Part shown: piece by piece, positions 321 to 58,279 of the stretch
How the letters are laid out: every line of letters starts with the position of its first letter
Numbering within the stretch: the first letter of the stretch is position 1
IMG/VR virus record: IMGVR_UViG_2061766007_000514
DNA length: 64,000 nucleotides
Source of the DNA: an uncultured virus (IMG/VR IMGVR_UViG_2061766007_000514)
Lineage: Duplodnaviria > Heunggongvirae > Uroviricota > Caudoviricetes
Reading direction: 5' to 3' (one strand)
Notes under the pieces: model-generated
Database searches by the model: none
Told to the model about the DNA's origin: nothing
What the model saw: the letters and a program-made list of their open reading frames with translations, nothing else
Made by a program: the position numbers and the translations under genes

Positions 321-3265
321 TCACATGTATTTCGATACAGAAGACTTAGAGCATCCGACAGCTTCAGCAATAGCAGCTATCGAGTAACCAGATGCTTTCA
401 TTGCTTTAATCTTATTCTTTTGTGCAACAGTAAGTTCTGAACTTCTTCTTGGCAAAGCATAAGACTTAACATTATTCATGTCAGCATACTTAAGTAATTC
501 AGTTAATTTACTGTCACTGATTGCACCAGCTTGAACAGCTTTCCATTCTTTATCAGTGAAGATTATTGGCTTTCGTTTTGCACCAACAACAAGTCGAGCA
601 TCAGTTAAAGCTCTTTGTCTTTCCTTATCAATTAATGATTTGTATTCTTGTTTTGTTAAACCTTGTGCTTCATAAGCTTTTTTCTTTGCTTGTACACGAC
701 TAATAGCTAATCGTTGAGCTGCTCTTTCACGAGGACGATTCATCTTAGCAAGCTTTAATTGGGCATCTAATGAATCAACTTCATCTTTATACGCATTTTT
801 AGCTGCCGCTGAATACGTTATAGACCCGGNNNNNNNNNNNNNNNNNNNNNNNNNNNNNNNNNNNNNNNNNNNNNNNNNNNNNNNNNNNNNNNNNNNNNNN
901 NNNNNNNNNNNNNNNNNNNNNNNNNNNNNNNNNNNNNNNNNNNNNNNNNNNNNNNNNNNNNNNNNNNNNNNNNNNNNNNNNNNNNNNNNNNNNNNNNNNN
1001 NNNNNNNNNNNNNNNNNNNNNNNNNNNNNNNNNNNNNNNNNNNNNNNNNNNNNNNNNNNNNNNNNNNNNNNNNNNNNNNNNNNNNNNNNNNNNNNNNNNN
1101 NNNNNNNNNNNNNNNNNNNNNNNNNNNNNNNNNNNNNNNNNNNNNNNNNNNNNNNNNNNNNNNNNNNNNNNNNNNNNNNNNNNNNNNNNNNNNNNNNNNN
1201 NNNNNNNNNNNNNNNNNNNNNNNNNNNNNNNNTAGACTTGGGGGCCTGGTAATCGCTCTTAGCCGCCGATATTAATGTTGCTGCACCTTGTGTATACTTC
1301 CCGTTTTCAATACGACCTTGATAGGTTTTCTTAAGCTCCGCTATATCGTTATCCCGGGCACTTTGCTTATAGTCTAGGTCGTGCTTGGTAGCATCAATGA
1401 TTACCATAGAGTGCTTAACAGCCCTTACTATTTCCTCGGGTTTAGCGCCTCCAAGCTGCATATCGGTAATCAGATTAGAAATTTGTCCCATCTCTTGCTG
1501 CGTTGCACCCTTTGAAAGACGGGGATAGTCACCTTCATGCTTATACTGGTTTGGATCAAAGTCCGACAACTCAGCGAATGCACCAGTACGAGGCTGATTC
1601 TGTATCTTAACTTTATCAGATAATGGGATGACCATTACAGTATCACCGTCAAAGTCTGCACCAGATAAGATTTTAGCTGTATTAGATGTAATACCAACAG
1701 CTGATCTAGTATCCATGCCAATCATTCGCATGCCTTCAGCATTCTTATTATTGACTTTTAAAATTGGAATCTCAAATAATCCAGCATGAGGATAACGAAC
1801 TAATGCAACCTCTGTACCATCTAAGTAATCAGGAGCAAATATTTCAGTATCTTTCTGTGAATTAACAGGCAGAATAACTTTGTATTTTTGTCCAGGAAAT
1901 GCCGCAGCTTTCAGATCAACCGCATTACCATCGCACTTACTAGCAAACTCTTGAAGTAACTTTCGCTTAACTGTAGGATTCGTATAAGCTAGGATTTCTT
2001 CATACTCAGCTATCTTATCAGCTTTAGAAAGTTCAATCTGTTTAATAATCGTTTCCTGCGGCTGCTTAGATAAGAACTGAGTGGCAAGTGTATCTTTCCA
2101 ATCATTCCAATCATCCTGATCGGCTCGTTTATTAATCAATGAAAGAGACTGCCGTACACCCTCTGAATTAACAAATTTTCCATTAGGATCATCATAATAT
2201 GACTGGCCACCTTTTTCCCTTTCTTTAATTGTAGATCCAAAAGGATTATCCGGATTGCTATCAATCTGTTTTAAAACGGTATTGTTTTTATCATTGCCAA
2301 GGGCCGGTGTTCCTTCTTTTTTATTAGTGTTAAATATAACATCAACACCATCAGGCATCTCTTTCGGGTCGCCATAAACAGCCATGCCTTTTNNNNNNNN
2401 NNNNNNNNNNNNNNNNNNNNNNNNNNNNNNNNNNNNNNNNNNNNNNNNNNNNNNNNNNNNNNNNNNNNNNNNNNNCACCGTCTTTTAACTCTCCACCCTG
2501 TTCACCAGCATATCTGATTTTAAGACGAGATGAATCCATGCTGGCAGGATATTCAAATGCTTTATAAATATCATTGCCATTATTGACTAAGATCTTGTCA
2601 TAGTCATCAACTGTCCCTATCTTGTCAACATCAAAAATATCTTTATGCTGATGTTCAGGTGTCGTTAAGATATGCTGAGTTGTCGAATGATTACCAGTCT
2701 TGTCTGTTACCTGTTGAAACCGACCATCATATACATGATAACCTTCCATCTTGAGTATCTCGAGTGCCGATTCCAGTTTTTCATGAGAAATATGAAGTTC
2801 AGCTTCAACGCCGTCTCCAACATCAACCATGCCTTTATTATCGACAATCTCTTTCAAATACTCAGCAGTAACATGGGCAGATGATTTTAAACGTTTCTCT
2901 TCTGTAGCGATCAAGCTTCGAACTGTAGACTCAGGAATTCCCATTCTTCGACCAATCTCGGTCGGACTTGTAATACCTTTTTCTCTCAGTTCTCGAATCT
3001 GTGCATAGCTAGCTATCTCTGCTTGTTCTTTTTCAACTTTAATGGCTTTACGAAGTTCTGTCGTCGATTTATAACCAAGAAATTGAGCAATCTCAGCCTC
3101 ACTAACACCATCTCTTCTTAAAGCAGAAACACGGTCAGATAAATTCTTCGGTCTTTGAAAGGGGTCTTCACCACTGCCAAGAGGATATCTTCCGGAACCA
3201 ATTGGCGCACCATCTAATTTGCTTACACCAACATGAGCTAAAATATCATTGGCTATAGGATTCAT
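321..3265 (-). CDS. single-chain two-barrel DNA-dependent RNA polymerase (YonO-like)
   Basis: ORF pieces 2351-3265, 799-2478 and 321-743 are separated only by N gaps; the frame upstream of 743 stays open to the gap (GSITYSAAAKNAYKDEVDSL). Catalytic GADFDGD and RYPH motifs; HTH-like segments at both ends. Confidence 0.85.
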
Positions 3266-8837: not shown

Positions 8838-9407
8838 TTAATCTACCGCTTTCTTCTTTGGTTCCTGAATCTTAATATGTCGATCAAGCCATTTGTGAAA
8901 ATGAGTTGTGCTGCCACAGAGCCTCTTCATATAAGCCTGTGCAAACGCCGAGTAAATATCATCAGGATCATCCGGTTTTCTTTTAACAATAGTCTTAGAT
9001 CCGCCTCTCCAAATGACTATTAGGGCATTATTATTCTTGATAATTTCTTTCGGCTCCCAAGCCAAGATATAAGTGTTATCAAGAATCATGTTACGCATTA
9101 TTGAACCAACAAAGGTTCTTCCATTTCCACGCGGAACATTCACAGTCAAATAAGTTCCGTCCGTACTTTTAGCATAAAGCGATGCATCAAAGATATCATT
9201 GGTGGATGGACCCATTTTTTCAGTTTCTCTCCTTTCGTTTTCATGTACGTACATATCACGCATAACTTTAGACGGTGACTGGATATCAAGTTCATGCTTT
9301 ATATCCTCTATAGCCTTCTCTATAAGAGTATACATAGCATCCTTCTGTGTCTTGGACATAGTGTCAACTACATCTCGAATATTTAAGATTACCTGTTCCG
9401 TAGGCAT
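8838..9407 (-). CDS. chimeric hypothetical protein carrying capsid-scaffold-like and tape-measure-like peptides
   Basis: SD GGAGG; aa 10-35 match the capsid scaffold, aa 39-51 match the tape measure; C-terminal common phage domain (LIVIW.GG.KTIVK). Confidence 0.7.
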   Translation of the reverse strand: MPTEQVILNIRDVVDTMSKTQKDAMYTLIEKAIEDIKHELDIQSPSKVMRDMYVHENERRETEKMGPSTNDIFDASLYAKSTDGTYLTVNVPRGNGRTFVGSIMRNMILDNTYILAWEPKEIIKNNNALIVIWRGGSKTIVKRKPDDPDDIYSAFAQAYMKRLCGSTTHFHKWLDRHIKIQEPKKKAVD

Positions 9408-9455
9408 TTATTCAACCTCCATCTAATATAACTGCCTCCAATAAATAAAAATAAA

Positions 9456-9537
9456 GAGAAAGCCCTTATCCCGGCGAACAATATTAAATTTTTAGATTTT
9501 GCTGAGAGAAGCCAGCGGTGTGTATAAGAGCTTTCCC
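9456..9537 (-). ncRNA. structured RNA 3' of the tRNA; diverged member of the CAGCAA hairpin family
   Basis: Closing stem GGGAAAGCTCTTAT/ATAAGGGCTTTCTC followed by U-tract; internal CAGCAAAATCTA identical to array unit D. Confidence 0.45.
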
Positions 9538-9540
9538 TTT

Positions 9541-9617
9541 TGGTGGGCCTTCAGAGATTTGAACTCTGGACCTGGAGATTATGAGTCAACTGCTCTGACC
9601 TACTGAGCTAAAGGCCC
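9541..9617 (-). tRNA. tRNA with CAT anticodon, Ile2-like (Met not excluded)
   Basis: GGGCCTTTAGCTCAGTAGGTCAGAGCAGTTGACTCATAATCTCCAGGTCCAGAGTTCAAATCTCTGAAGGCCCACCA; full cloverleaf, encoded CCA, two mismatches in anticodon stem. Confidence 0.85.
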
Positions 9618-10529: not shown

Positions 10530-12117
10530 TCAGAGTCCCTTTACAGCGTTCTCAACGGGCTGGTAACGCTCAGTGTTGAGAGTCTCGAGCAAACATTCAT
10601 ACGGATCTGCCTTTCCAGACATCACCATTTTACAAATGTTCACGGAGAATCCGCTAACAAGAGCTACACCCAGCTCGTTTTCCCGAACAGGAATCGCGCC
10701 GGTACGAGAGTTGACATTCCAGAATACAAGCCTCGGNNNNNNNNNNNNNNNNNNNNNNNNNNNNNNNNNNNNNNNNNNNNNNNGAGGTTGAAAAGCGTAG
10801 CATCGGCACGGCGCATATGACGATACGTCTGCCCATGACCGATTATAGACCGACCCACCGAATACTCCGCGCAGTGATCAAACTCCATATCAGAGATGAT
10901 CAGTACATTTGCCGGAATATCATCCTGACTAAGATGATTTTGAACAGCCGTCTGAAGAATGAGGTCAAATACCGCCTCAATGTTAGTATTTGAACACTCA
11001 TTATGTCTGGCTGCTTCCCTGAGCTTGTCCCTTAATGTCATATCGTCATTGAAAGTGACAAACTGCGGGCTGGCAGAGAATGTGATGTACCGGTTGTGGT
11101 ACGGTCCCTTAGCCCTTTCCGCAAAGTAAATGGCGAGAGCATTGGCGACATCAAGCGCCATAGCAGTTGTTCCAGCGATGCTCGTGATCATCGAACCACT
11201 ACCATCTGCGACAACCATTGTGGAGCCACCGCCATTGACCATGTCAGGAAGCGCTTTCCACATCGCCTCGAGTGCAGGATCGAAAGTTTTCGGCACATAT
11301 TCCCACCAGCTTTCACTGCCATTGTATGCATGAACAATATCATGCGGATACAGGACGGAGGAATTGATTTTAGCCTCGCCTCTTTCTAATGCCGAAAGAT
11401 AGGCAAAGCGGCGATCTGCGTCGTGACGAAGGAAAGCATCCTTATAGAGCAGATTAGCTTTCGACGGGACAGTTTCATAGTTGATGCTGCCCCAGTCATT
11501 GCTAGACATTTTCCGCTCCGTCACATCGAGGTAATGACGAAGATGGCTCAGGATCTTACGATAAGTCCTCTCCGTCAGGTGAATCCCTCTGTAGATGACT
11601 TTAGCGAGCGCCTTCGTATGTTCCGAAGAAGCATTAGCCGAAGGAAGCCACTTAGCCAGGAGAGAGACCGGCTTACCCACTTTGGAATTCTCCACATCTG
11701 CATGAATCTGTGACCAGATCAGGTCAAAGATTGTCTCACGGAACCGCAGATCCGGAAGAAGCTCCCACAGATCATCCCAACGGCCATATTCGGCAACCAG
11801 TGGAATGAGCCTTTTCAGGATATCAGGATCACGGTTTGCGATTGTCCACAAGCAGGTACGGAACAGTCTCCGTTCGCCGAGGCCGCCACGAATATCTCGG
11901 GCAAAGAAGAGCCACTTAATAGCAAGAAGCTTATTCTCGCTATAAGCCTTGTCGAAGCGCATCCGAATATCTTCCTCAAAAGCACCTCGCAGAGAGGCAA
12001 CGGCGAAATTCAGATCCAGGAGATCTTTACCGGTCGAGCGAAAGGCCAGAGCACCATTCTCAGTACGAGTCAGATTCGCATCAGAGTTCAGATAGGNNNN
12101 NNNNNNNNNNTGTTCAT
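10530..12117 (-). CDS. DUF2828-family TROVE/Ro60-like protein with C-terminal vWA (MIDAS) domain
   Basis: TENGA, RDIRGGLGERRLF, EYGRWDD, LLAKWLPS, MIDAS DGSGS, ISDMEFD; after the N gap the frame continues PRLVFWNV...VSGFS to TGA at 10530; ATG at 12117 after SD AAAGGGG. Confidence 0.8.
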
Positions 12118-12140
12118 TGCATTTTCCCCTTTCTTTAATA

Positions 12141-12479
12141 CAAGACATGTTTTTCTTTTGAAAACCACTCAAAGAAATAAATTTGCTGTGAATGTCTTTG
12201 GTAGGGCAAGGCACTAAAAATACACNNNNNNNNNNNNNNNNNNNNNNNNNNNNNNNNNNNNNNNNNNNNNNNGCGCATAATTCTTTTCAGTAGCAATAAG
12301 AATTGAATTGCTGTTAGCGCCTAAAAAAAAGAAACAAAGCACAGGTTTTTAATCTAATAAATATCCATAGATTTTGCTGTCTGTGCTTTTAAAAATATGA
12401 GAGAGTGCGAACAAGACACATGAGTCAGCCTCNNNNNNNNNNNNTTGCTGTGTGCGTCTTTCTTAAAGCCACTCTCTCC
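12141..12479 (-). ncRNA. tandem array of five stem-ACAGCAA-hairpin RNA units
   Basis: Units at 12141-12198, 12207-(gap), (gap)12273-12322, 12335-12389, 12412-12460; invariant ACAGCAA in the four readable units, with covarying closing stems. Confidence 0.75.
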
Positions 12480-22927: not shown

Positions 22928-23503
22928 TTAAATAATATCTGTGTAATTGTTTTCATCTCGTGTAATCTCGTAGATGCAAGACTTTTTATCATTACATACA
23001 TGAACTACGTCTTCCTCATAGTCTCCAAAATGCCCTAAGCATTCAGTCCCAACAGATTCTTTGATTTCGACATCTGTCAAAATATCATTTTCATCATCTG
23101 TCAGTGCGCCGTCTGCATAGTAGTTCAAACGAATGACATGATAATCTCCTGATTCTTCCATCTCATTGAAATCGTCAGGAGAAATTACGTACGGTTTTTC
23201 CGTACCTTTAATATTATTAGGAGGAGTAGCTCTTTCGGTAATGATTTTTTGAGCTATGTCTTTGAAGTCAGGATAGGCTACTTGAATATTAAATTCAGAA
23301 TGCTCTGGCTTTTCCGGAACAATGCCAAACTTCTTTTCGTACATCTCCCTGACAGAGGCTACTTCTTCCTCAATACGAGACGAATATTTCTTAATTTGTT
23401 TATCATACTTCCGCTTGAGCAGATACCAAGTTACTCCAGAACCAATACCCGCTCCAAATATAAGTCCAAACAGAGGTTTCCCTTTCATGTAAACTCCTTT
23501 CAA
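22928..23503 (-). CDS. membrane-anchored hypothetical protein
   Basis: N-terminal TM helix; PYVISPDDF, YYADG motifs. Confidence 0.65.
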   Translation of the reverse strand: MKGVYMKGKPLFGLIFGAGIGSGVTWYLLKRKYDKQIKKYSSRIEEEVASVREMYEKKFGIVPEKPEHSEFNIQVAYPDFKDIAQKIITERATPPNNIKGTEKPYVISPDDFNEMEESGDYHVIRLNYYADGALTDDENDILTDVEIKESVGTECLGHFGDYEEDVVHVCNDKKSCIYEITRDENNYTDII

Positions 23504-24429
23504 ATATGACGTAAGCAGCTTAGAATGGGACCGTCTACGTTAAAGTCGAGCCATACAGCAGGCTCATAACCATATCTGAAGTCATCGTTGCACTGTCTAG
23601 TTGCATCGAACAAACCAAAGTCGATACGTCCATCACCATCACCGTCCTTAGTCCATCCCACAACCTGTCCTGCTTCTGTTAAATCGAAGCCAAGTTTTTC
23701 ATACACTTCATTTAAGAAAACGAATCCTCGTGCATCCAGAATCTTCTGATAGGTTTCCTGAACACCATTAATAAATACCTGATTGTTATAGCAATTACTC
23801 TTGTAGTTAGGATTCGTCTCATCAAAGCAGCGAGCATAATCGGACAGTTCGCAAGGAATATCCTTCATCATATTAACGGACTTCTTAACTTTCTTGACTT
23901 TTCCGTTTTCGTCCGTTTCTTCTTCTGTTATCTGTTCAACTTTTGTGTTAAATCGGAGCTCCTTATCAACTTGTTCTCCAAAACGTTCAATGACATTTTT
24001 TCTATACTTCTTGAATGCTCCATCAACTGCACTATATGCTGCTGCAAGTGCCGCATTACGCTTTCGTAATATCTGATTACTTGCCAGCATGCACCCAAGC
24101 GATGCAAAGCCAAGAATCACAGATGGAGCGTACAATTTAATAATTTTCCAAGTAGTCTTGGCATATGTAACAGTCAAATCATGCTGAGCATCCTTATGTG
24201 TATACTCAGGAATCATCGCATTATTGTCGGCTTCATGGATCTTTTCCACTTCTGCCTTATGATCTTCGATAATAGTATCAATTTTCCTTGTGGCGCAGCA
24301 TGCTCCGACAGCAGCAGCAATAACGCCAACCGCTCCTCCAATAACGAGCAGTTCAGGACTAGCCTTTCTAAGGCTAAATGCAGTTTTCTGCAGTCCATTC
24401 GAGATCTTCTGTAAGAATTGAGTTTTCAT
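23500..24429 (-). CDS. DUF6353-like membrane protein, paralog 1
   Basis: SPELL TM, RRNAALAAAY-type helix, FVFLNEVY..LG..GQVVGW. Confidence 0.65.
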   Translation of the reverse strand: MKTQFLQKISNGLQKTAFSLRKASPELLVIGGAVGVIAAAVGACCATRKIDTIIEDHKAEVEKIHEADNNAMIPEYTHKDAQHDLTVTYAKTTWKIIKLYAPSVILGFASLGCMLASNQILRKRNAALAAAYSAVDGAFKKYRKNVIERFGEQVDKELRFNTKVEQITEEETDENGKVKKVKKSVNMMKDIPCELSDYARCFDETNPNYKSNCYNNQVFINGVQETYQKILDARGFVFLNEVYEKLGFDLTEAGQVVGWTKDGDGDGRIDFGLFDATRQCNDDFRYGYEPAVWLDFNVDGPILSCLRHI

Positions 24430-24440
24430 GTGCTCTCCTT

Positions 24441-25037
24441 TCATCTTAAGTCAATAGGAATAGGTCTGGGGAGTTTAATCATCCACCCATCGCCAACAGG
24501 ATAAATATCCATAGGTCCAAGATCAATCCAACCATATCGATTACCTGTGTAAGGGCCTTGACGATGTGCAAGTTCAAAGAAGTCTGCTACCGTAACCCTA
24601 CGTCTGTCACGCAAGATTTCAATCATCGTTAAGCGAACTTCTTCGGCTTTTCCATAATTTAAGAAGATGACATCATCAATGTCCAAATAGTCATAGTTGT
24701 AATTTGAAGGTTTAGATTGATTGGTCGAACCATAGTAATCCTTGTACGAGATTGTGGTCTGATTACCATTTTTAGGAATTATAGATGTTCCTTTTTCACT
24801 CAAGAGCATCTCAAGACTGTTAAGAAATATCCTTTTAATTCCCGGAATGATCAACTGTTTTACAACATATGTTTTGACAGAATTTAAGTCTTCTGCAATA
24901 AATGCATCACGAAACTTGTGAAAAATCGTTTTCTTTCGTATTTTGGTATCGTTTTCTCCTACAATTGGGACAATTGCTTTCTCTTCCGTCTTTTTTTCTT
25001 CTTTTGATTTGTAAGAATTAGAGGGATAGTCTGTCAT
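24441..25037 (-). CDS. hypothetical protein sharing the DUF6353-like C-terminal motif
   Basis: VTVADFF...RYGW. Confidence 0.6.
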   Translation of the reverse strand: MTDYPSNSYKSKEEKKTEEKAIVPIVGENDTKIRKKTIFHKFRDAFIAEDLNSVKTYVVKQLIIPGIKRIFLNSLEMLLSEKGTSIIPKNGNQTTISYKDYYGSTNQSKPSNYNYDYLDIDDVIFLNYGKAEEVRLTMIEILRDRRRVTVADFFELAHRQGPYTGNRYGWIDLGPMDIYPVGDGWMIKLPRPIPIDLR

Positions 25038-25640
25038 GTGGTTCTCCTTTCAAGAAATGAGCTTGATTTTGCCTGGGAGGGTGATTCGTGACTGTGCAGC
25101 TCGACCGTTTTCTTTTTTCCATCGATAAGTGAGGTTACTACGCGCCTTAGCTTCTGAAGGCGCTGTAGTTTCTGCTTTCCAAATATGCTGAACACATCGT
25201 TCAAACTCCATTACAGGACCTTCATAAATATAAAGGTTCATAGTTTCCTCCTTATTCAATTAAAAAAAAAGGAAAAGTCCTTGTAAGGACCTTTCCCTTT
25301 GAGAATCACTTCTCGTCCGAATCCTTTTCCGGATTCTGCTCACGCAGGTCGATGATGACCACCTGCTTNNNNNNNNNNTTCCGGTCTTTCTTCGGTTCCT
25401 GCTCCGTGGCGGTATCGCCGGCGTCGGACCTCGCTGCCTTCTTAGCCTTGATCTTCTTGATCACCTTCACGGTGCCAAAGACCAGGCCGCCAAGGACAGC
25501 GGCGCCAACGGCTGCTACACCAGCATTGAAGCTGTTGCCGGAAGAAACGCCTTCCNNNNNNNNNNNNNNNNTCAGTGTCGTTCATGACCTCGATATTGTT
25601 TTCGTCCATGATAAATTCTCCTTTCAAGAATGTATTTTCT

Positions 25641-25665
25641 CATAATATTCCTTGTAATTTTCGCG
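25641..25665 (-). promoter_or_regulatory. 25-bp phage promoter-like motif, copy 7
   Basis: CGCGAAAATTACAAGGAATATTATG. Confidence 0.75.
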
Positions 25666-25667
25666 TG

Positions 25668-26426
25668 TTAATATTTGCGAACAAGACCAGGATCTCGGGA
25701 GAATCCAAGAACNNNNNNNNNNNNNNNNNNNNTCGAGGAGAAGCATGGTCTGACAGGTCCATCGATTGCATTCCAACCAAGTACTTCACCAGTTTTTGTT
25801 CGATCAAGATTAATCATGTCATAGAATTCGTTTAAACTGATAAATTCTTCATCTCTGAGTTGATATGATAGATCTTCGATCGCGTGTTTCAGGTCATCGA
25901 TATCATATGGGAAGTCACGACCGCTCCATGGGTCATAACATACTTCCTGCGTACCTTTCAGTATGTATGTTTTCCCTTCCTGAATATCATGTTTCTCGAT
26001 TGCCTTTTCATTCGCTTTTTCCTGAAGAGTTACCTCCTTTTTCTCTCCAAGAAGTTCCTTCGCAGCTGTCTTATAATCTTGTAATGCTGTCTCCGTAACA
26101 CTGCACACTGCGGCTAAAGCTGCATTTCTACGATGGAGTTCACTTGTTGCAAATATAATGCAACCAGCAGATGTAGCAAATGAAATAGCACATGGAACGT
26201 AATACTTCCACGAATAATGAAGTTTTTCCTTAGCTGTAAGCTCTTGATATGGTACAACTTCATTTTCTTTAGGAACCGTGATCTTACTAACTTTGCTAGT
26301 TGCCTTGACAGCAAATATAATGGAAACGCCCATGCCAGCAATACCCATGCCGGTTAATATCTCTGGTGATTTACGTTCGAGAAAGCCGCTGATAGTCTTT
26401 CCGACTAATTTCCAATCGATTTTCAT
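25668..26426 (-). CDS. DUF6353-like membrane protein, paralog 2
   Basis: SPEILTGMG TM, RRNAALAA, ISLNEFY...GEVLGW; start MKIDWK. Confidence 0.65.
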   Translation of the reverse strand: MKIDWKLVGKTISGFLERKSPEILTGMGIAGMGVSIIFAVKATSKVSKITVPKENEVVPYQELTAKEKLHYSWKYYVPCAISFATSAGCIIFATSELHRRNAALAAVCSVTETALQDYKTAAKELLGEKKEVTLQEKANEKAIEKHDIQEGKTYILKGTQEVCYDPWSGRDFPYDIDDLKHAIEDLSYQLRDEEFISLNEFYDMINLDRTKTGEVLGWNAIDGPVRPCFSSXXXXXXXVLGFSRDPGLVRKY

Positions 26427-26466
26427 ATACTCTCCTTTCAAGATAAAAATAAGAGGGGGAGCCCAA

Positions 26467-26631
26467 TCAGGACTCCTCCTCCGTTGACTCTGCAGGCGGA
26501 TTGAGATGCCGTTGAACGGCTTCGTCAACCTCCTGTTCCATCTGCTTGCTGGCTACGATCCCACCGAAAATGCCGGCGAGTCCACCAACAGCAGAGAGAA
26601 TTACTCCTATTAACTGCCATTTTGACTTCAT
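26467..26631 (-). CDS. 54-aa membrane peptide (cassette gene, not in ORF track)
   Basis: MKSKWQLIGVILSAVGGLAGIFGGIVASKQMEQEV...; SD AAGGAGG; between motif copy 8 and a hairpin/U-tract. Confidence 0.65.
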   Translation of the reverse strand: MKSKWQLIGVILSAVGGLAGIFGGIVASKQMEQEVDEAVQRHLNPPAESTEEES

Positions 26632-26652
26632 ACTCAAACCTCCTTATTTAGT

Positions 26653-26677
26653 CATAATACGAGTTGCAAATCTTGCG
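26653..26677 (-). promoter_or_regulatory. 25-bp phage promoter-like motif, copy 8
   Basis: CGCAAGATTTGCAACTCGTATTATG. Confidence 0.7.
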
Positions 26678-27535
26678 TCACCGAACATCATAGGCATAGC
26701 ATTGATTTTCATCAATATAAAGCTCGATGTCTGGACGTTTCTCAAGAATATAATCCCATTCGGGAGAAATCGGAGTCTGAATAATATAATACGGAGGCGT
26801 GTCTATGTCTGACGATTCAACAAAACTATGATAGAATTCGATCCAGTTCTGATCAGGATCCCAATTTTCAGCAAAATCTTGGTAATCCCAGCCAACGTTT
26901 TCTGCACCAGTGTCAATGATTAACGAATCATTATTGGTTTCGTCTCGAAGAATCTGAATATAATCAGCTAGAGAACAACAACCATAATGAGCAAGCCGGC
27001 GATTTGCCTCATACTCGGACTTAATTACATCTGCTTCTGTAGCCCAAAAATATTGCTGTGTATTAGGTTCGAACCATAGAAACATTTCAGTCATACTAGC
27101 TTTCTTATGCTGCATGACTTCTTCAAGATTAAAATTATCTTTTGCAATCGACTTTTCTACTTCGTCATTTGCCTCTTTGCCAAATAACTCCACTACTTTT
27201 TGCTTGTACGTTTTAAAATTGTGTTGAAGCAAGGTGCATGTAGCAGCGAGCGACAAATTCTGACGATGATTAAGAATCTGAGAGCTAACAATTGCAAAAA
27301 TGGTGACGGCACCGGCTCCAATGGCAGGCAAATATGCCGGCGTTGCAGCAATCACTTTCTCTAAGGGTTTCAAAGGCTCTGTGCTAGTCTCTTGTTTCTT
27401 CTCTACCCTTTCCAGAGCCTTCGGAGTGCATTTTGCAGTCAGAACCGCCGTACCTACGACACCGGTAACACCAATTAATGTTAAAAGAAAGGGAGATGCT
27501 TTCTGCAGGCTTTTCCATGTTTGATTCCAGTTCAT
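26678..27535 (-). CDS. DUF6353-like membrane protein, paralog 3
   Basis: KASPFLLTLIG TM, CSLADY...NVGW. Confidence 0.65.
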   Translation of the reverse strand: MNWNQTWKSLQKASPFLLTLIGVTGVVGTAVLTAKCTPKALERVEKKQETSTEPLKPLEKVIAATPAYLPAIGAGAVTIFAIVSSQILNHRQNLSLAATCTLLQHNFKTYKQKVVELFGKEANDEVEKSIAKDNFNLEEVMQHKKASMTEMFLWFEPNTQQYFWATEADVIKSEYEANRRLAHYGCCSLADYIQILRDETNNDSLIIDTGAENVGWDYQDFAENWDPDQNWIEFYHSFVESSDIDTPPYYIIQTPISPEWDYILEKRPDIELYIDENQCYAYDVR

Positions 27536-33868: not shown

Positions 33869-34459
33869 TTACATCACCCCCATATGAATCTCAAAGCCTC
33901 CGCAAGTAATTGGAGCAGTAGCACTCGTCGCTGTACCATATACAGTCCCACAATGCGTCGGGTCTAAAGAAAGAATATAATTAATTAAATATGTATGAAT
34001 AGCTAAGATAGCTTTTTCAATATTATTGGCCGTACTTAATGAAATACCATCATAGATCTGCGTAATTGTAGGTATCGTTCCTCCGATATGCATTTCAGCA
34101 TACCATTTATCTCGTACTCTAATAATATTATCAATATATGCCGTTAACTGCGCTTGTGTAGGGTCAGCAATACTTCCCCAATTAGTAGCCATCGTCACAT
34201 AGTCAGGTGTTATCGTACTGTAATAATCACGCATTAAAGCAACAAAAGTATTACAGTACGTTGCTACACGATTACGATCTTCTGGATTATATGCACCTTT
34301 TTGAGGCGTTGTAGCCATTACCTTTTGAGCAGCAGTCATAGCATCATAAGCGATTAATCCAATAGCTTTTAAATTATTTACATCGGTAGTAGTACGATCA
34401 ATTATCATTTGCTGACTTAAAGTGGTAAGCTGATCTATCATTTCCTGTTTTGTAGGCAT
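33869..34459 (-). CDS. minor tail protein
   Basis: IIDRT..DV, KGAYN..DRNRV, ANNIEK; position in tail operon. Confidence 0.6.
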   Translation of the reverse strand: MPTKQEMIDQLTTLSQQMIIDRTTTDVNNLKAIGLIAYDAMTAAQKVMATTPQKGAYNPEDRNRVATYCNTFVALMRDYYSTITPDYVTMATNWGSIADPTQAQLTAYIDNIIRVRDKWYAEMHIGGTIPTITQIYDGISLSTANNIEKAILAIHTYLINYILSLDPTHCGTVYGTATSATAPITCGGFEIHMGVM

Positions 34460-34475
34460 TTAATCAACCTCCATT

Positions 34476-37237: not shown

Positions 37238-40200
37238 TTAGAATGTAGTTTTTGGTGAGTAGAATGGAGTACCATTGGCACGACTGGCAAGCATATAATC
37301 TTTAAGTGTAGCACGTGCCAGAGTAAAACCATCAACATTAACATCGACGTAGAGGTCATTTTGAGCATGTGCTTCGACGATATCGCGAAGATCATCAAGA
37401 GACATGTTAAGTCCCTCAATACGATTACCAATGCTTTCAACAAGTGCATCAGTCATCGCCTTCTGCTTTGCAATGCGAGCATCTTCGCCATCAGCAAATG
37501 CTTTAGCTGCCATAGTATAAGAACCAGACAAATCAAGGAAATCACTTCCAAGTTTACTAGCATTTTCATACACACCAGACAGATCCAGCACAGGAGAAAT
37601 TGTCGGCGCAACATCAAGATCACTCTGAAGAACCTGATCAATCTTAGTTACTATGGTCTCCGCAGATTCCTGAGCTTCAGTCAACGCAGCATCCGTCAAC
37701 TTATGCACACACGAGATAACGAAGGGGATTAGATTCACGATGCCAAGTCCGAAACCTTCAGAGAAATATTCACCAAATTGTTCAGTAACTTTAGAAGGTG
37801 AATTTATTTCTAGTGGATCTGCGATTGCATCAGCAACTTGACCACTTAAGTCTTGAACTGCGTCAATAGCCTTACCAGCTGCATTTCGAACCCCATCGCC
37901 AAAACCTTCAGGTACATATTCTCCTAGATTGCTGAAAATATCACCAATACCGCCGCTATTAACTTGGCCAACTATATTTCCAACGAGGTTACTTAAACCA
38001 AGCGACTGCGCAAGATCACCATTCAATATACCAGATATGAAACCTTTAAAACCATTAACGGTTCCTTCGCCAAGGCCTTCGCCAATGGCTTCACCACTTG
38101 TCACGCCAGCACTATATAATTGAGGTTTAGCTTCCTCAATTATCTGTACAATTCCGTTCATACTTTCATTAATATCAGCAAGAACCTCATTATCACGAAG
38201 CGGTGCGAAAAGATCAACATCATCAAGGATAATCTCACTTGCATGCGGAGCCTTATCAAGTGCTTCTTGAATAATCTGCATAACAGGATTATTTTCAGGC
38301 ACTGTCAGATAATCAGCAATTTGCTCTTCGGACATGTTCTTGATGCGGTCCATAGCACGTGTATACGAAGGTACATACTGCTGGAAGCCAACTTGCTCAG
38401 ATGCTAAATTAACGAGTGTGAGATAAGTATCACGATAAGCTTGCTCCGCATCCATAGCCGCTTTAGAATCTTTACCGAATTTCTGAATTGAAGCATTTAA
38501 TTGATCCTGTGCGGCTGCAGCGCGTTCTGCAGCAAGAGCAATTTCTTCACGATTCTTAAGAATATCATGAACCATCTGATCATCGTCCGAAGCATTTGCG
38601 TTGGCAGCCTGCCAAATACTATCTCTAAAGTCAAGAGTAGAGGCACGAAGGTCAACAGAATCAAATACTTTCTGGAATGCAGCCACAATGTTCTCTGCTT
38701 TCTTAGCCGCAACTTCTTCTGCTGTCATATCAGAGGTGATGCCATAAGCAATACCTCTAATTATCATAGCACCAGCATCATTGTACTCAATTTTCGGTTC
38801 TGCTACCGTCGAAGCCAATGCATCATAATAGGACTTCTGAGTTTTAATGAACTCAATTTGCGCCTGGTTATACTCATTTGCGGCTTCAATGTACTGATCG
38901 GAACCCTCGTCGAAAGTGAGTTTCACCGTCTGGAATTTAGCAGCAGCAATCCGGAGTTTCTTTTCGCCAAGATCCATTTCCTTCTTAAGTTTATCAACCT
39001 GACGATGAACGCGATCGGCAGAAGACTCATGAATTGTGCTAACTTCCATGAGTTCGAAGTTAACCTGATTTGTCTTAATTTCAGTCTCAATACGATCGAA
39101 TTCTGTCTTGAAAGCGTTTACAATGTTTTCAGCTTTCTTTGCTGCTGCTTCTTCAGCAGACATGTTATCGGTAATACCATCAGCAAGACCCTCAACAATA
39201 TATCTACCGACTTCATCACGCATGACTTTCGAAGGAGATTGGATCTTGAGCTCATACTGAAATGTTGCGGTGATGGAATGAGCCATAGCAATCATGCTAT
39301 TTCTGACTTCATCCCAGGCATGATCCATACCCTTCTGAATACCCGTTACAATCCAGGCACCAGTTTTTGTTAGACGGCTAAGCAGATTAGCAGACTGTAT
39401 AGCATCGACAAGAATATCAATGTATTCACCAGCTAAAGTATCATAAGTGTTTCTTGCAGCAGCCTTAAGAACAATACCAAACGCGTCAGCCACTGTCTCN
39501 NNNNNNNNNNNNNNNNNNNNNNNGTAAGCTAAGTATAGAAGTAGCCGCATTATTCATCAAAGACTGAGCATCTTCGCTCTCGAACATACCAGCAAATGCT
39601 GTTAAGCCATTTTGTGCTAGATCAATTAGTCCCTGTGTAAATGCATACACGCCATCTGAAGTAACGGACTTCATTAAACCGGCTAATGTTACAAGTTTGT
39701 TAATGTTTGTTATAGCATAAGTAACAGAATCCCAGTTAACATCGCTCACAGTAATACCAAATGTTTTGATTGATTCTCCGAGTTGAGAAATTCTAGCACC
39801 AAATTTATCTAAAGTATCTTTAGTACCGATGCCAAGAAAACCCTTTNNNNNNNNNNNNNNNNNNNNNNCTACACTAACGAGTTCGTTAGCTAATGCTGTG
39901 CCGGCAGATATTCTAGTTTCATCGATTCCCATGGTCCATGCATAATAAGAATGAAGGCCAAGACCCAATGCCTCAAGATTACCTCCAAAATCACTTAAGG
40001 TATCTTTAGCTCCGAACCATTTCTCAAGCTTACCACCACGTGGCGGCAATTTACTATTTAATCCGGCTAAGGTTTCTGCTACTCCAACAGCAGCTTTGGT
40101 AGACTCGTCGCCAGCAGTAAATCCACCTGTATTTAATTTATTTTGAAAATCAACAAGACCCTGTGCTAACCAAGGTAATTCTGTTGCCCAATTACTTAAG

Positions 40201-43200
40201 TCCTTACTGCCTAACCAAGCCTGAAGAACTCCTCCGACGCCTGGTAAATGATTGTTAAGTGCAGCTAATGCCTCGCCAGCATTTGCAGCAGATTTAACCA
40301 ACCCTTCATCAAATGTAAAGCCTTCTTGTGTAAGAATCTGCTGAAATCGAACAATACCGTGAGCAAACCAAACGATTCCCGTAGCGAATTCTTTCATATC
40401 CCCGGCTTCGCCAGTAAACCACTGAACTACTCCACCAGTTTTTGGTAATGCATCTTGCAACTCTGCCATTAACATTCCAGCAGACTTCGCAGCTTTAATT
40501 TGTTCTTCATTAATCGTAATACCATCTAATGCATTACAAAGTTCTTTAATACCAGTTCCAAATGGGCCTATCCCTTCTGCAAAAGTCTTTAGATCTTCTT
40601 TATCACCAAGTATAAGTCCTGCTAATCCACCACTTCGAGGCATAGCATTTAGTAATTCACCAAAGCTAGCCATTGCTGTTGCTGCATTTTGTACATTTGA
40701 AAGATCTACACCAGCCAACATTTCAGATGCAGCAATGAGATGGGGCACGAATGCTTCAAATTGCTTACCAAATTCGGTCAAACTCTGGGCCCCACCAAGA
40801 ATATCATTAAGACTTTCGAGAATGTTAGCAGTAGCAAATTCCTTAAGAGCATGAATAAGATCCATAANNNNNNNNNNNNNNNNNNNNNNNNNNNTACCTT
40901 CTCCAAACTCTGTAATTGCAGTCTTAGCTGCACCACCCAGAATTCCACCAATAATATTACCAACAAAATTTCCGAGAGCCTTACCCAGATCCTCTAACAA
41001 TTTAGCTCCTCGTTCAAAGTTGGCAATGCCATTATCGCCAGAAAATATAAGTCCTATTGCACCTATAGCTGCAGACAACAGGATAAGAACTGCACTAAGT
41101 CCAGCGGCCCCAATAATTGCTTCCGTAGCAAGTGCTCCGAGAATTCCGAGAACTCCAAATAATATTGTAAATTCAANNNNNNNNNNNNNNNNNNNNNNNN
41201 NNNNNNNNAAGTCATTCCTCCAATAAGACCTAATATTGCAAATATAGCAAGTGCGCCAGCTATAACTAAGCCAAGAGTCTCAAACTGTTTAAGGATCTGA
41301 ACACCATTAGAAAAGAATTCTTTACCAGCTGCAGAAGAAAATATCAAGCCAATGATGCCAACTGTAGCAGATAAAGCTAACATTGCTACACCAAGACTGG
41401 CTGCATTGACTATTGCACTTGAGGAATCGATTTTAATCTTACCAAGAAGAATAAATAAAGCAGCAGCACCGGCCATAACTAAACCAATAGTCTCAAACTG
41501 CTTAAGAATCTGAATACCATTAGAAAAGAATTCTTTACCAGCTGCCGATGAGAATATAACACCAATTCCACCAACAGTTACAGCAATAATCACGAGAGAG
41601 GCACATATAGCAGCTACAGCTTTAACAGCTTGTTTTGCGCCATCAGCACGACTGGTTACACTGGTTATTATTTTGACAGCTCCTGCAATTGCCAATATGA
41701 CAGCACTAAGACCAGCTGTAGCCGCTATGATCTCAGTCCATTTCATGCCAATTCCAAGAACAGCAATAGCACCTGTCATGATCGCTAAAGCTAATGACAT
41801 TGACAATATAATGCCAGCAGCCTTTTGAGCATTTTTAGATGAGTGCACGACTAATGCCATTAAAAGCATTAAACCACCAATAGCGGCACCGCCCTTAGCA
41901 ATACCTTCCCATTCCATTTTGCTCATCAGCTTCATACATAAAGCTATGGCGCCAATAGCAATAGCCATTGCTATAAATGACCCACCAAGTTTTGCTATTT
42001 TCTGTTCTTTGTCAAGTTTTGGTGTGGCTTTAATCATAAGCGTCATCATGCTCATGATAACAATGATACCAGTAGCACCTTTACCAATTGATCCCCAATC
42101 CATCTTACCTAGACGTTGCATTTCTTCGCCAATAATAAATACTCCGCCTAACATGAGTAAGAAGCCTGCGCCAGTACCAAATGCTCCTTTTCCCTTAAGA
42201 CTAAGACCACTCGCTGCTTTAGCTAATAATTTCAAATACACGAACAAAACAAGAAATTGAGGTAAAATACGTAATAACGATCCTGGTTCAACCTCTTGTA
42301 ACTTTTCAAGCGCCTTGACCATTAGAGACAAGCTAGCGATCATAAGCACCATACTAGCACCGCCGCCTTTTCCGGCGATACGAGCAACACCTGCTAAAGC
42401 AAATAATGCTAATAATACTGGAGTTAACTTTTGAATTGTTAAGACCATTTGTTCTGCGTCTAATGCATCAATTGCCTTTAGTACTTTAGCCAGAACAAAC
42501 ATAGCCGTAGCTATTACCATTAAGGTCTTGCCACCCTTGCCAAGCAAAGAATGCATCTTACCGAGAACAAAGACAGTACCTAAAAACTCAACTATTAAAA
42601 TAGCAAACGCTTTTAATTTGTCGTTTATACCACTAATATCTGTCTTACCAATAATATAGAATGCTGCTGCAATAGTAGCTAAAGCAACACCTAAACGTAT
42701 AAATGTATTTGAAATAGCAACCAATGCAATTTGACTATCTTTCGCCATGATCGATTTAGACAAAAGTGTAATTAAGCCAACAGCAATAAGTAACGAACCT
42801 AATACGGCTATTAAAACACTAGCACCACGTAATAAACCTTCTCGGTCTTGTTTTGCTAGTATTACGAGAGCCGCTGTTAAAGCAGTAATTGCTGCTGCTA
42901 AAGCTGCTATAGGACTCGTATTAGCTATTTTACTTGTTATCTTCTTAACAAACCCGCTAATACTAGTGCTAAGTGTCGTTAAACTTTCCAAGAACTTTGA
43001 AATATTTGCAATCATTGTAACAAGCGCAATACTGAAAGCAAATATCAAAACACGTCCAGGTGTTAAACCTTTGCCAAAATCTATTAATGCATCTTTTACT
43101 TTCTTAAGAAGTTCAGGAAGATCTTTTGATTTTTCCTTAATAGTCTTAAGAAATTCACCAAAACCGGTACCTTCTAAGTTGATTTTGAAAGTATTAATCA

Positions 43201-45448
43201 AGTTTGAGAATATTTTTCGTATATTACTAATCCAGTCGGAAAGTGTCTTCCAACTCATGTCACTAGTTAAATTCTTTACATATTCCCAACCTATTTTCAA
43301 ATAATCAATAAAAGTACCAAATGCGCTAATAACAGTATCTAATATATTTACAAGATCTAATTTACTAATTGCATCTAAAGCTACAATTATACCGTCGGCA
43401 ATCCAATCAGCAACCTTAGATAATGCGTTTCCAATCTTCTCTAATACAGCTTGTGCCTTCTCACTACCAGTAAAACCTTCCCACATATCTGAGATATGTT
43501 GACGAACTCTCTTAAATTCATCGCGAAGATGTTCTATGGCTGTTTGGAATGACGTAATTATTTTTAATCCTTTGCTTTCGCCAAAGATCTTAGTAAGTAT
43601 CACTTCCAACGGCTTTGCATTAGAAAACGACTCTAAAAATGACCGGCCTAACCTATCTACTTTGCCTAAAAGTTTACCAAACCATTTAAAGCCCTTACCA
43701 GCTAAATCAACTACCCATCTAATTGGTTTTATTAAACCAGTTAATATGCTTTGCAGACCAGCTGCTTGCTCATCAGTAAGTTTTAAGCCTTCAGTAAAAT
43801 TTTTAAGTTTTTCTGTAAAATTATAAATTTGCTCAGCTGTGATTGGAGGAAATACGGTTCGAATTGCCTCTCTAAATATTGATATGATACCAACTGCCTG
43901 CTTTGTCTCTTCATTGACAGCAAATAAGGCATCCCAAATATTCCAAAATGCAGTGACTAAGTTTTCTCGCCCAGAAACTCGCTGAAGTAATTTAACATAT
44001 TCCTGAACACTAATTTCACCATTTGCTAAGGCACGAACATAGGATTGCATACTGCTTATTTGATCATCAGTATATCCTTTTGCTTTCAAGGTCGCCGCAT
44101 CGTATCGAATCGCTGCATCAGCTGAGTCGAGAAGTGCTTGCGTCAAAACTTCGGCATTGACCCAACCAAGCTTTAACGATTCATCGAAATCTTCATCAAT
44201 TGCTGCTTGAAGTGCATCGTCTAATTTCCCTGTCGCCTTAGCAGCATCTATTAAGTACATCTTAAATAGATCCATATCAGGGATTCCTTGTTCTTGTAAT
44301 CTCTGAAGACCTGTATTTAATCCATCACTTAATAATGCATTTCGTTTTTCGCCACCAACTACAAACACGGAATAGAATTCTTCTGCTAAATCAGTGAAAA
44401 ACTTTTTAGCTTCTTTATAGTTACCAATAATCAGTTCAAAAGTTTTCATCCAACCAGAACCGACAGCATCCTTGGTATAATCGATAACTTCAGAAAAAGT
44501 CTTAGCTTCCTGAGCAGCTTTGGCAGCTGTCATGCTTACGCCTTTATACTCTGTCGCAAGCTTCTCATACGCATCTGTAGCACTAAGAGCCTGACCGGAC
44601 TTGACCATTTTATATGCAAGCTCCGTGACCTTGCCAAAATAGCCAAAAGCCCGTTCCATAACTTCTGTATCAGCCCACTTATTCTTAAGTGTCTGTGCGA
44701 AGTTTGCAATTGTTACCTCGTCTTTCTTAATCTTACCCATTTCCACAGCAGTATCGATAAATGTCTGCTTTAACTGCTGTGATGCAACACCGGCGAGCTC
44801 AACACTTCGCCAATCCATATAAGTTAAATAACCAGCCCCATAAGACTGATTAAGATTATACATAACCCGTGAGAATTCCGATGCATTCTTACCTGCGTAA
44901 GCCGTAGCATTAGCTACACCTATAACCATCGGAATCAGTTTATCAATATCACCACCAGAGGAAGTCATCTGAGCAATAGCTCTAGTCATATCATTAAACC
45001 CATAGCTAGTCTCATCAGAGAACCACATGAGTTTATTCAGATATTCATTTACTGCTTCAATAGACTTGCCAGTAGCATTCATGATAGTCTGAACCGAATC
45101 AGTCTTATCCTGAAGTTTCTGCCATCCAGCGGCAATATTATCAACGCTTAAAGATTTTACCAATTTAACGCCAGCACTCGTCGCAGCATCAACAATATTA
45201 TAANNNNNNNNNNNNNNNNNNNNNNNNNNNNNNNNNNNNNNNNNNNNNNNNNNNNNNNNCTCTTCCATTTTTTGCATGGAAAACTTTGAAGCCTCTTTAT
45301 TTACTTCTTTGATTCCCTTTGCAGCACCTTCAAATTTCAGGTTCTTTTTGAATTCCTTCAAGGTCTTCATGGAAGTAGATACGTTTTTCTCAAAGTTCTT
45401 ATTATCGAACTTCATTTCTACTACTCTCTGGTCAACTTCAACGCCCAT
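37238..45448 (-). CDS. tape measure protein (~2700 aa)
   Basis: Three ORF pieces joined at N gaps; RVVEMKFDN N-terminus, tape-measure domain, TM-rich centre, SPSKV repeats. Confidence 0.85.
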
Positions 45449-49649: not shown

Positions 49650-51488
49650 TTAAGGGTTTGAACTAGTGACGTCTTCTTCCAGAACAATAGCAGACTTGAT
49701 GCGAATCAGAGCACCAGAACAACGAGTTTCCAGCAGGCTCTTTTCCTGGTTGAAGTCAATATCGAACTGATTGAAGTGAGTGATCTCGCCACCCTTAGTA
49801 GAACCAACATTATAGTCGTTCATGTCAACAAAGATAGCAAGAAGCTTCTTAGTCGCGGCCTCAGTCGTAGCAGTCGCAGCGATCTCACGGGTCTTGTTAG
49901 CAAACTGCTCAACCTCTTCAATTGCGACAACATTCAGCGCTGCACGCAGCTCATCTTTGGTCTTATACATACGATGACCATCGCGGTCACGAGCCAGGAG
50001 CATGATGTTGATAATATGCGGGTCAGCATACATCGTCAGACGACCGCTTCCCTTATACTGCTCACGCAGATAAAGCGCTTTCTGGATAATAGCCTCAGCA
50101 TAGATGAAGTTCTCACCGAAATACTTCTCAGTGTCATCACCCTGAAGCTCTTCCGCCATCTGCTCAAAGTCCACATCACCGTGAATAGTGAACAGCTCAT
50201 CATCAGTCCAAATCGGGCGGATATGGGACGGGAAGATCTTATCCGGATCATCATCTTCACGCTCATCACCGATAAACATCGCAAGAGCAAGAGTCTCATT
50301 CAGCTGGAGACGATCGATCTTATACTGATATGCAACATAGTCAAAGTCAGTCAGATCAACGATATCATCACGGTTAAGAGTGCTACGAACATACACAGTC
50401 TGCGGATCAGTCGTACGACGAGCCTCACTATACTTACCAGTCAGAGCCTTCGGATGACCCTTAACATAACCCTTAGCCTTCAGAGTATCGATACCGCGAA
50501 TATCAACCTGACGGGTACGAATACGGCTAAACGGGGTCTTGTGGACGCCAGACATAACTCTGGTAACCCAACCCTGGTCATAAGTGATCAGCTCAGGCTC
50601 ACCAGGACGAACATCCTTAAACTCAGGGAACAGCAGTGCCAGACTCTCGTCGGTAAAACCAGCAACCGGAGCCACGTCGTCCTCATCATCATGCTGCAGA
50701 TAATTCTCAGTATAAGTCTTGAAAGCTTCTCTAAACGAACCACAGCGCTTGGCATCGGTCAGAATCTTCTCCTGATCGGCATGGCAAATAACATTCCCAG
50801 ACTGACGCTCATCAGTCTCAAATACATTGTGCTTCACGTTTTCTTCCTCCTCATTTTCATCAACGCCAGACTCTTCAAGTGCCTGACCAATAAGAGCATA
50901 CATAACAGTCTTCTGCTCTTCATTCATAGAATCGATAACATCTTTGACAGTCTTTTCGCTGTCATTCTTCTTTTCGTCGGCCACTTCAGGCTCCTCCTCT
51001 TCTTTTTTCTGTTCTTCGGCATGCTGTAATTCAATTGCAGTTTCATTGACATAACCGAATACGCATTCATCTACTTCCTCGCCCTCACCATGAGCCATGA
51101 CCTCTTCGATATAAGCTCCAGGATTTGCGCCAGCTAAAACAAGACTCACTTCACGAATCATACCATGAAGTACATCACTGCCTTTCTGCTGTAAGCGATT
51201 AGCATAGATAGACAATCCAGTCACATCACCATGCTGTACAAGAATTTTACCGGCCTGACCAGCTTCAGTGTCATTGAACGATGCATAAGCATATACGCCA
51301 TCTACTCGGTTTTCGAGCAGTGCATGCCCAAGAACATTCATCGGATCACTGTGATCATGATTCCACACCAGAGGAACCGTCTTACCATCACAATCCTTAA
51401 ATGCATCCTTCCGGATAACACGACCGTCAGCGCATTTAAGGTCATTGCGAGTGGCATAACCGGCAAAGTCGCAGTTTTTGCTACTCAT
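49650..51488 (-). CDS. prohead protease - scaffold - major capsid fusion
   Basis: HK97-type protease (VPLVWNH, LSIYA, EVSLVLAGANPGA), acidic linker, capsid domain; likely start MSSKNCDF after SD GGAGG. Confidence 0.85.
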   Translation of the reverse strand: MSSKNCDFAGYATRNDLKCADGRVIRKDAFKDCDGKTVPLVWNHDHSDPMNVLGHALLENRVDGVYAYASFNDTEAGQAGKILVQHGDVTGLSIYANRLQQKGSDVLHGMIREVSLVLAGANPGAYIEEVMAHGEGEEVDECVFGYVNETAIELQHAEEQKKEEEEPEVADEKKNDSEKTVKDVIDSMNEEQKTVMYALIGQALEESGVDENEEEENVKHNVFETDERQSGNVICHADQEKILTDAKRCGSFREAFKTYTENYLQHDDEDDVAPVAGFTDESLALLFPEFKDVRPGEPELITYDQGWVTRVMSGVHKTPFSRIRTRQVDIRGIDTLKAKGYVKGHPKALTGKYSEARRTTDPQTVYVRSTLNRDDIVDLTDFDYVAYQYKIDRLQLNETLALAMFIGDEREDDDPDKIFPSHIRPIWTDDELFTIHGDVDFEQMAEELQGDDTEKYFGENFIYAEAIIQKALYLREQYKGSGRLTMYADPHIINIMLLARDRDGHRMYKTKDELRAALNVVAIEEVEQFANKTREIAATATTEAATKKLLAIFVDMNDYNVGSTKGGEITHFNQFDIDFNQEKSLLETRCSGALIRIKSAIVLEEDVTSSNP

Positions 51489-54296: not shown

Positions 54297-54866
54297 TTAC
54301 TGTCCAATAGAAAGTCTTCCAGTTCCTCGACGAACTTTAAACTGGTTTCCAATTACAACCCCATTCAAATTTCCATATCTCATTAATTCGTCGAAATATG
54401 TCATTCCTTTATGAGCATCACGGGCAATTTTAGTACTAGATACATCATAGCCAAGAGTATGCGCATTTGCCATCATCTGCCATGTTTTCTTTTCCATTTC
54501 TTCTAAATGACTATGACTATCTAGCATCTTTTTTAAATACTTAGTAGCTTTTTGACTAACTTTTTGCGCTCGCTTATCCTCTTGACCGTATTTGCCCATT
54601 TTATTTAAAGCTTTATTCGCGTATTTATTAGCTTTTTGTTTATAGGCCTCATAATCGCCTATAACATATGCCTGCTGTTTATCAAACTTATTTAAATCTC
54701 TTTGCAAATGCCGAGCACCACGGTCAGTCGGACCATACGTTCCACTATACCGTTTCCTACCGTCTGGAGTAAGAGATCCATCTTCATTCTGCCAACGACG
54801 GATGCCCCAACGCTGACCTTTTATACCATAGTGAAATAATTCGCCATTTACTAATGTATAATCCAT
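54297..54866 (-). CDS. basic protein with HxGxKGQRWGxRR N-terminal motif (putative internal virion protein)
   Basis: GELFHYGIKGQRWGIRRWQNEDGSLT. Confidence 0.65.
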   Translation of the reverse strand: MDYTLVNGELFHYGIKGQRWGIRRWQNEDGSLTPDGRKRYSGTYGPTDRGARHLQRDLNKFDKQQAYVIGDYEAYKQKANKYANKALNKMGKYGQEDKRAQKVSQKATKYLKKMLDSHSHLEEMEKKTWQMMANAHTLGYDVSSTKIARDAHKGMTYFDELMRYGNLNGVVIGNQFKVRRGTGRLSIGQ

Positions 54867-58268: not shown

Positions 58269-58279
58269 GTTATCCTCCT

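Follow-up and report, generated by a model that had tools for sequence, protein, structure and literature searches.

A composite leader of structural-gene peptides on a widespread unnamed phage domain

In a 64,000-nucleotide stretch of DNA from an uncultured virus (IMG/VR record IMGVR_UViG_2061766007_000514; hereafter the window), the ORF 8838-9407 encodes a common, unnamed phage domain behind a 64-residue leader in which a translation start from the tail region, a helix of the capsid scaffold and the SPSK motif of the tape measure are joined. The chimera, its three family-level sources, the ancestral start that the leader has overrun and the recurrence of the scaffold helix on other proteins are established at the level of sequence, and the leader thus is a real and unusual case of structural-peptide reuse, with a putative function. 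The reading that we prefer, with a probability of roughly 0.38, is that of a portable docking tag that would engage partners in head or tail assembly; translation from M1, binding, the nature of the partner and the effect are what we infer.

The phage and the surroundings of the gene

The window covers most of the genome of a temperate siphophage, as judged by family searches that identified terminase, portal, protease-capsid, two major-tail genes, tape measure and integrase. Metagenome runs from bovine gut, all of one sample, contain its sequence. The protease-capsid protein has matches in 244 phage records, mainly of Arthrobacter, Gordonia and Streptomyces phages, and also of Lactococcus and Faecalibacterium phages. 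A supercluster that unites the actinobacteriophage clusters AM/AU/AW/BI/CC/DJ/EL with Lactococcus 1706-like phages and FP_oengus is described in the available part of bioRxiv 842583. The capsid kinship with this supercluster concerns the phage as a whole; unlike the supercluster phages, the phage of the window is uncultured and comes from bovine gut, and the top capsid identity among the 244 records is 56%.

The ORF follows directly after a tRNA-Met (9541-9617) on the minus strand, with small genes around it and a thymidylate synthase further downstream, and is placed in the co-oriented lytic arm, outside the tail operon. Between the tRNA and the ORF, at 9453-9540 (-), there is a 17-bp inverted repeat with a long loop and a subsequent U-rich tract; the whole 141 nt around it have a z of -1.5. 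A second GGAGG, at 9439, is followed by ATA and could be what is left of an older start. A DUF2828/DUF7788 protein is encoded at 10664-12214 (-), two genes upstream of the tRNA, and 23500-27535 (-) holds a cluster of three DUF6353 paralogues. Two otherwise unrelated proteins, 57309-58298 and 2351-3265 (-), have a 29-residue GSGRYPLGSG peptide in common (76% identical); if the starts of the DUF7211 proteins 54297-54866 and 54879-55352 are added, the phage group has several portable peptides.

The window contains 1745 N, and the tape measure, 37238-45448 (-), is broken into three frames at N runs, which probably are assembly gaps and not true breaks. An assembly artefact at the ORF itself was considered and is unlikely, as contigs of two runs span the motif region without differences; both runs are of one sample, possibly the source of the window, and hence do not constitute independent support.

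Composition of the leader

Table 1. Positions of the ORF, its parts and the corresponding native elements in the window
Feature	Position	Strand	Basis
Whole ORF, 189 aa: 64-residue composite leader and ancestral gene	8838..9407	-	sequence, AlphaFold
Unnamed conserved domain at the C-terminus (three strands, two helices)	8862..9062	-	homologue search, structure model
Remnant of the ancestral M65 start, now inside the open frame; its GGAG stands 13 nt upstream of the ATG	9213..9236	-	sequence, homologues
Copy of first half of tape-measure SPSK repeat, aa 37-51 (core aa 39-51)	9255..9299	-	tblastn, codons, profile
Scaffold-helix copy, aa 10-35	9303..9380	-	tblastn, profile, shuffles
Ribosome-binding site and first codons; GGAGG 8 nt before ATG	9388..9422	-	match to start of 33869-34459
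Start of tail-region gene 33869-34459, likely donor of the ORF translation start	34440..34474	-	DNA match
Native tape-measure SPSK repeat	39215..39259	-	tblastn, profile
Native scaffold helix, linker of protease-scaffold-capsid gene 49650-51590	50871..50948	-	tblastn, family searches

An earlier note on this DNA had aligned the start of the protein with the capsid scaffold and, three residues later, with the tape measure. Both alignments were reproduced, with 12/26 identities of aa 10-35 to the scaffold at 50948-50871 (tblastn E 3e-5) and 12/13 of aa 39-51 to the tape measure at 39253-39215 (E 2e-6), and the spacing of three residues is correct. The two pairs score 40.5 and 36.7 bits; when the proteome of 101 window ORFs was shuffled locally 20 times, no pair scored higher than 32.0. 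With profiles built from 38 scaffold helices and 24 tape-measure repeats, aa 1-64 reach 25.2 bits for the scaffold helix (maximum of 3000 shuffles 11.0; still 19.7 bits when the window's own capsid is removed from the profile) and 27.8 bits for the SPSK motif (maximum of 3000 shuffles 6.0). One long tape-measure copy behind both matches was considered and rejected: a profile of the helix upstream of SPSK gives -0.6 bits, and the two likenesses therefore are separate.

Between protease and capsid lies an acidic linker that holds the native scaffold helix, and relatives have one helix there or several in tandem; exact matches to its pattern fall into capsid genes in 80/80 cases, and none of the solved structures searched contains the motif. 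The copy retains D12, V13, Q21, K22, Y26 and A32, while the conserved Gly is replaced (E30) and the acidic pair at 19-20 is gone. It is degenerate, with only 5/66 native repeats scoring equally low, and by profile comparison it is no nearer to the capsid of its own phage than to those of relatives. AlphaFold models the copied segment as a helix-turn-helix (pLDDT 85-91) within a leader of three helices (2-16, 19-39 and 45-63), followed by a low-confidence linker (64-74).

A capsid N-terminal motif is recognisable in 40/63 capsid genes, and a start codon with a Shine-Dalgarno core is found just before it in all 40, against a background of 36/458 ATG/GTG codons further in. Another such start lies at most 30 codons before the helix in 22/31 testable genes, with the reservation that acidic codons favour such cores. 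In the window, GTG at codons 203 and 252 of 49650-51590 (-) are putative internal starts, and the same pattern appears in L232-L311. The protease-capsid gene thus appears nested and likely has three co-terminal products. Lambda C/Nu3 is a precedent for co-terminal nested products.

The SPSK repeat is general among siphophage tape measures (63/80 records), a second native copy lies near 37787-37828 of the window, and residues 1029-1059 of the 80alpha tape measure (PDB 6v8i) contain the motif. With 189 aa, a position outside the tail operon and no downstream Gly-containing half of the repeat, the ORF differs from tape measures.

A third copied piece, not in the earlier note, forms the very 5' end: 9388-9422 and 34440-34474 are identical at 31/35 nt. 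When anchored at the start codon, the identity to the start of 33869-34459 is 30/35 nt, and the runner-up among 48 other starts reaches 17/35. Its seven codons show one synonymous and three non-synonymous changes, and this ratio suggests that a translation start was copied as DNA.

Several homologues begin with MGP at the equivalent of M65, and it follows that M65 is the ancestral start and aa 1-64 are a lineage-specific add-on. The homologue P0009 likewise reads through this spot, with two residues fewer before the Met, so that the internal M65 start, being more widely spaced than its counterpart in P0009, may be weaker. The possibility raised earlier that the true start lies downstream of aa 51 thus holds for several homologues, yet in the ORF the upstream start has its own strong ribosome-binding site, from which the frame is open. 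The three pieces are joined in frame and without stops, and the scaffold and tape-measure likenesses both end at motif edges.

Across the 13 tape-measure codons, the count of seven synonymous differences and one non-synonymous codon, taken earlier as a sign of selection on the peptide, was obtained again, but the conclusion drawn from it stands only in part. In a neutral-decay simulation that starts from the phage's own tape measure and ends at 34/45 nt, 12/15 residues were kept in 0.2% of stop-free runs (P=0.002), and decay from this donor is rejected. A 7:1 pattern is also expected if the piece came from a related phage. In L003, whose tape measure is about 38% identical in the region, 12/13 residues of the SPSK peptide are present, and the window's tape measure matches that of L003 at 29/39 nt and the ORF copy at 30/39 nt. 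Both are thus equally distant, and an imported piece would show as large an excess of synonymous differences. A donor in the phage's own lineage is indicated by the DNA likeness, which runs two codons past the SPSK motif and reaches aa 37-51 (34/45 nt). For the scaffold helix, the corresponding simulation gave 6% (P=0.06), and neutral decay is not rejected. A better retention at conserved columns (p=0.018) was discounted, as it is expected without selection on the copy.

Could the leader be nothing but a tolerated mosaic? In such a scenario, sloppy recombination, partly with DNA from related phages, would have left debris ahead of a domain that tolerates N-termini of any kind; of this debris, the conserved motifs alone could still be recognised, and the captured translation start would be the sole part that matters. 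This agrees with the extremely variable N-termini of the domain family, with a 5' piece that behaves like a plain DNA copy, with the equal synonymous distances to the tape measures of the relative and of the phage itself, with the internal start that accompanies native scaffold helices and that may be the captured element, with the singleton status of the two-motif form and with the P value of the scaffold copy. It has to be reconciled, however, with the facts that three pieces are in frame and stop-free, that two of them correspond to conserved donor motifs and end at the edges of these, that the domain acquired the helix on three occasions (see below), and that the 34/45 nt likeness points to a donor of the own lineage, for which neutral decay is rejected. 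We regard such a passive origin as rather unlikely.

C-terminal domain and recurrence of the motifs

The C-terminal domain has a beta-beta-beta-alpha-alpha arrangement (model pLDDT 92) and is widespread in phages, with 845 representatives at E<=0.001 and presence in 10/30 related records. The N-termini of this family vary highly. Neither Pfam nor PHROG, NCBIfam or PADLOC provides a family name, and a fold search gave no PDB match at E<=0.001 and none at Z>=5; the BFVD matches at E<=0.001 are uncharacterised siphovirus proteins only.

Two other members of this family carry the scaffold helix, P0047 (63 bits) and P0006 (46 bits), i.e. 2 among 150 others, the best of 845 hits, a share that is inflated because the search query itself carried the helix. 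The position of the helix differs among the tagged members. In a tree of the C-terminal domain (49 sequences, i.e. the 45 top-scoring of 156 proteins and 4 chosen ones, and about 70 columns), the three tagged proteins are on three branches among untagged relatives, with supports of 0.95, 0.86 and 1.00. The helix thus has been gained independently three times on one domain, as judged from this tree, and this repeated gain is the strongest new support for any function. Among 105 distinct ORFs with the C-terminal domain in the loci examined, none has either motif.

A scan for the helix across 120 virus records, 91 of them with any match, yielded three clear non-capsid copies (G011, G007 and G098); six weak rows at E 0.008-0.04 were left out of this count. 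The copy in G011 is a stand-alone ORF of 69 aa. In the DUF7211 protein of G098 (L315:1756-2493 (-)), the family motif is preceded by an acidic linker and, at the N-terminus, by two scaffold helices, and this two-copy protein is the one candidate for a head-region protein with such a leader among the 120 records; DUF7211 members also adjoin the head genes in the window. In G007 (L198:1648-2229 (+)), an XRE-type repressor has a scaffold-like helix near its C-terminus (21 bits), which may be a generic helix. Including the ORF 8838-9407, the copied helix is N-terminal in 4/6 non-capsid carriers. A family of small stand-alone proteins, L197:2263-2469, L199:1006-1224 and L200:923-1084, shows a likeness to a single scaffold helix or to a pair of them, at 29.8 bits, with 10-11 bits for relatives.

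For the SPSK motif, the 80 records contained no convincing copy outside tape measures: matches below E 0.012 are all in frames of at least 1005 aa, and three weak matches in short frames did not hold up on inspection. SPSKV in the homologue P0012 was rejected as a second case, with a cluster mate (P0155) that has no such motif and a score below 6 bits. P0047 shows a vague similarity in register behind its helix, which was left uncounted because the tape-measure profile gives it less than 6 bits. The 281-aa frame L201:445-1287 (+), from the tail region of a virus record without relation to the window, has a full SPSK repeat with the same QSPSKVMRD core and is a short tape-measure-like gene.

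Relatives were also searched for the same chimera, and homologues without the two-motif segment were found, as the earlier note had seen as one way in which its reading could fall. No second protein with both motifs was detected in the protein collection, viral contigs, metagenomes, genomes, phages or plasmids, searches that diverged ones could escape, and the leader-bearing form is a singleton (sequence cluster of 1). The N-terminal matches in viral contigs were capsids in 13/13 cases, and the five metagenome matches all were SPSK repeats whose frames, long or truncated, resemble tape measures. The scaffold helix thus has been reused repeatedly, and its pairing with SPSK is unique so far. Within the literature found, which is largely outside subscription journals, no role is described for either motif, nor a chimera of scaffold and tape measure.

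A possible relation of the C-terminal domain to anti-defence proteins rests on its topology. Like Acb4 of the PF13876 sponge family, in the available text of bioRxiv 2024.12.30.630793 and 2025.07.12.664507 a small phage domain with three antiparallel strands and two subsequent helices that is often extended or fused, it is built from strands followed by helices, and the PF13876 atlas score is 0.80. Unlike Acb4, the domain has no sequence match to this family: the PF13876 profile does not match the ORF and is absent among the 25 families listed for 108 aligned members. The structural comparison with Acb4 (9e4w; Z 3.1, rmsd 3.4, 54 aligned, rank 11) is tied with unrelated chains, among them dsRBD-like folds, and an Acb4-like topology is a weak lead from modelling.

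It is in this context that a decoy, as proposed in the earlier note, has to be considered. A two-epitope leader could bind host sensors of scaffold or capsid and of the tape measure without activating them, and the C-terminal domain would display the epitopes or add an anti-defence activity of its own. A head and a tail motif in one protein of the early/middle arm would suit a bait better than a loading signal. Moreover, sensing of tape measures and of capsids occurs, and short motifs are said to be what Lit and CapRel detect in the capsid (PMC13581612, in the part available), while a review links scaffold mutations to escape from CBASS (PMC13728456, likewise in part). However, according to the same part of PMC13581612, Avs sensors read folds over large interfaces, and Avs18 needs about 130 tape-measure residues, and stand-alone look-alikes such as T4 vs.8 activate the sensor instead of blocking it, as far as described in the available part of PMC13601566. 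The searches made found no sensor of either motif, and the DUF7211 case in G098 suits docking. Taken together, we consider a decoy distinctly unlikely, and an equally low probability is given to the more specific version of a multi-epitope bait, in which the best-conserved linear motifs of head scaffold and tape measure would be presented on a small anti-defence-like domain to capture host sensors of virion assembly and relatives would independently have taken up the scaffold helix. No result obtained here favours a decoy of host sensors over a docking tag.

Possible functions and known systems

At the level of sequence, a small accessory gene (M65 to the end) has acquired its 64-residue leader from structural genes in the form of a start, a scaffold helix and an SPSK motif. 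If this leader is a docking tag, the helix would bind the partners of the native helix, i.e. other scaffold helices or the inner capsid face, and docking would bring the C-terminal domain to proheads, either for loading or for a modulation of assembly. The SPSK motif would be a second tag, directed to the partner of the tape measure. Tags for head and tail combined in a single chain point to different compartments, which fits poorly to loading. The docking tag is nevertheless ranked first, because the helix recurs on accessory and DUF7211 proteins, mostly in N-terminal position, and because of the precedent of CpmB. Tolerated debris follows closely, then the decoy, and last a dominant-negative blocker.

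Such a blocker would act on related competitor phages, either from the prophage or in co-infection, by jamming their head and tail assembly, and it would address conserved motifs that competitors can hardly change. The phage has an integrase, both motifs are conserved group-wide, and CpmB works by such a logic according to the available text of PMC5644958. But the gene is located in the co-oriented lytic arm and has no promoter signal exceeding chance, and the assembly of the own phage would suffer as well, which makes a blocker highly improbable.

What would follow from the different readings? Should the copies bind, two interaction sites would be identified, namely the scaffold helix in the 1706/Oengus/actinophage supercluster and the SPSK repeat in siphophage tape measures, and the copies would be ready-made peptides for finding the partners of two short, widely conserved and unexplained motifs. 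A portable head tag, if true, would be a tool for cargo loading, and a two-epitope bait, if true, would expose immune sensors of short virion motifs. If the leader is neutral, the ORF is a clear snapshot of a new N-terminus built from three structural genes.

Among known systems, the T4 IP proteins have capsid-targeting leaders that direct internal head proteins. A docking tag would resemble them as a short N-terminal tag that is common to head-assembly proteins and unrelated cargo. Unlike these leaders, the leader of the ORF also contains a tail motif, packaging is putative, and no sequence likeness is to be expected. The T4 protein vs.8 is a stand-alone homologue of the terminase ATPase that activates Avs2 (PMC13601566, available part), and like vs.8 as described there, the ORF product is a non-structural look-alike of structural proteins of a kind that is sensed. 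While vs.8 is a whole folded domain, the ORF has two short peptides on an unrelated domain.

The closest precedent for docking is CpmB of SaPI1, which reuses the capsid-binding end of the 80alpha scaffold, so that a copied helix can occupy the site of the scaffold (PMC5644958, available part). As in CpmB, as far as that text describes it, a small non-scaffold protein carries a copy of a short helical motif of the scaffold, and the scaffold-motif homology that characterises CpmB-type mimics is found in the ORF, with 25.2 bits against at most 11.0 for shuffled sequences. CpmB is a satellite protein with a basic motif (RIIK) at the C-terminus, and its binding has been seen by cryo-EM (same part of PMC5644958). 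The ORF 8838-9407, in contrast, belongs to a full phage genome, in which terminase, portal, capsid and tail genes are present, and its motif is N-terminal, joined to a tape-measure motif and putative in its binding.
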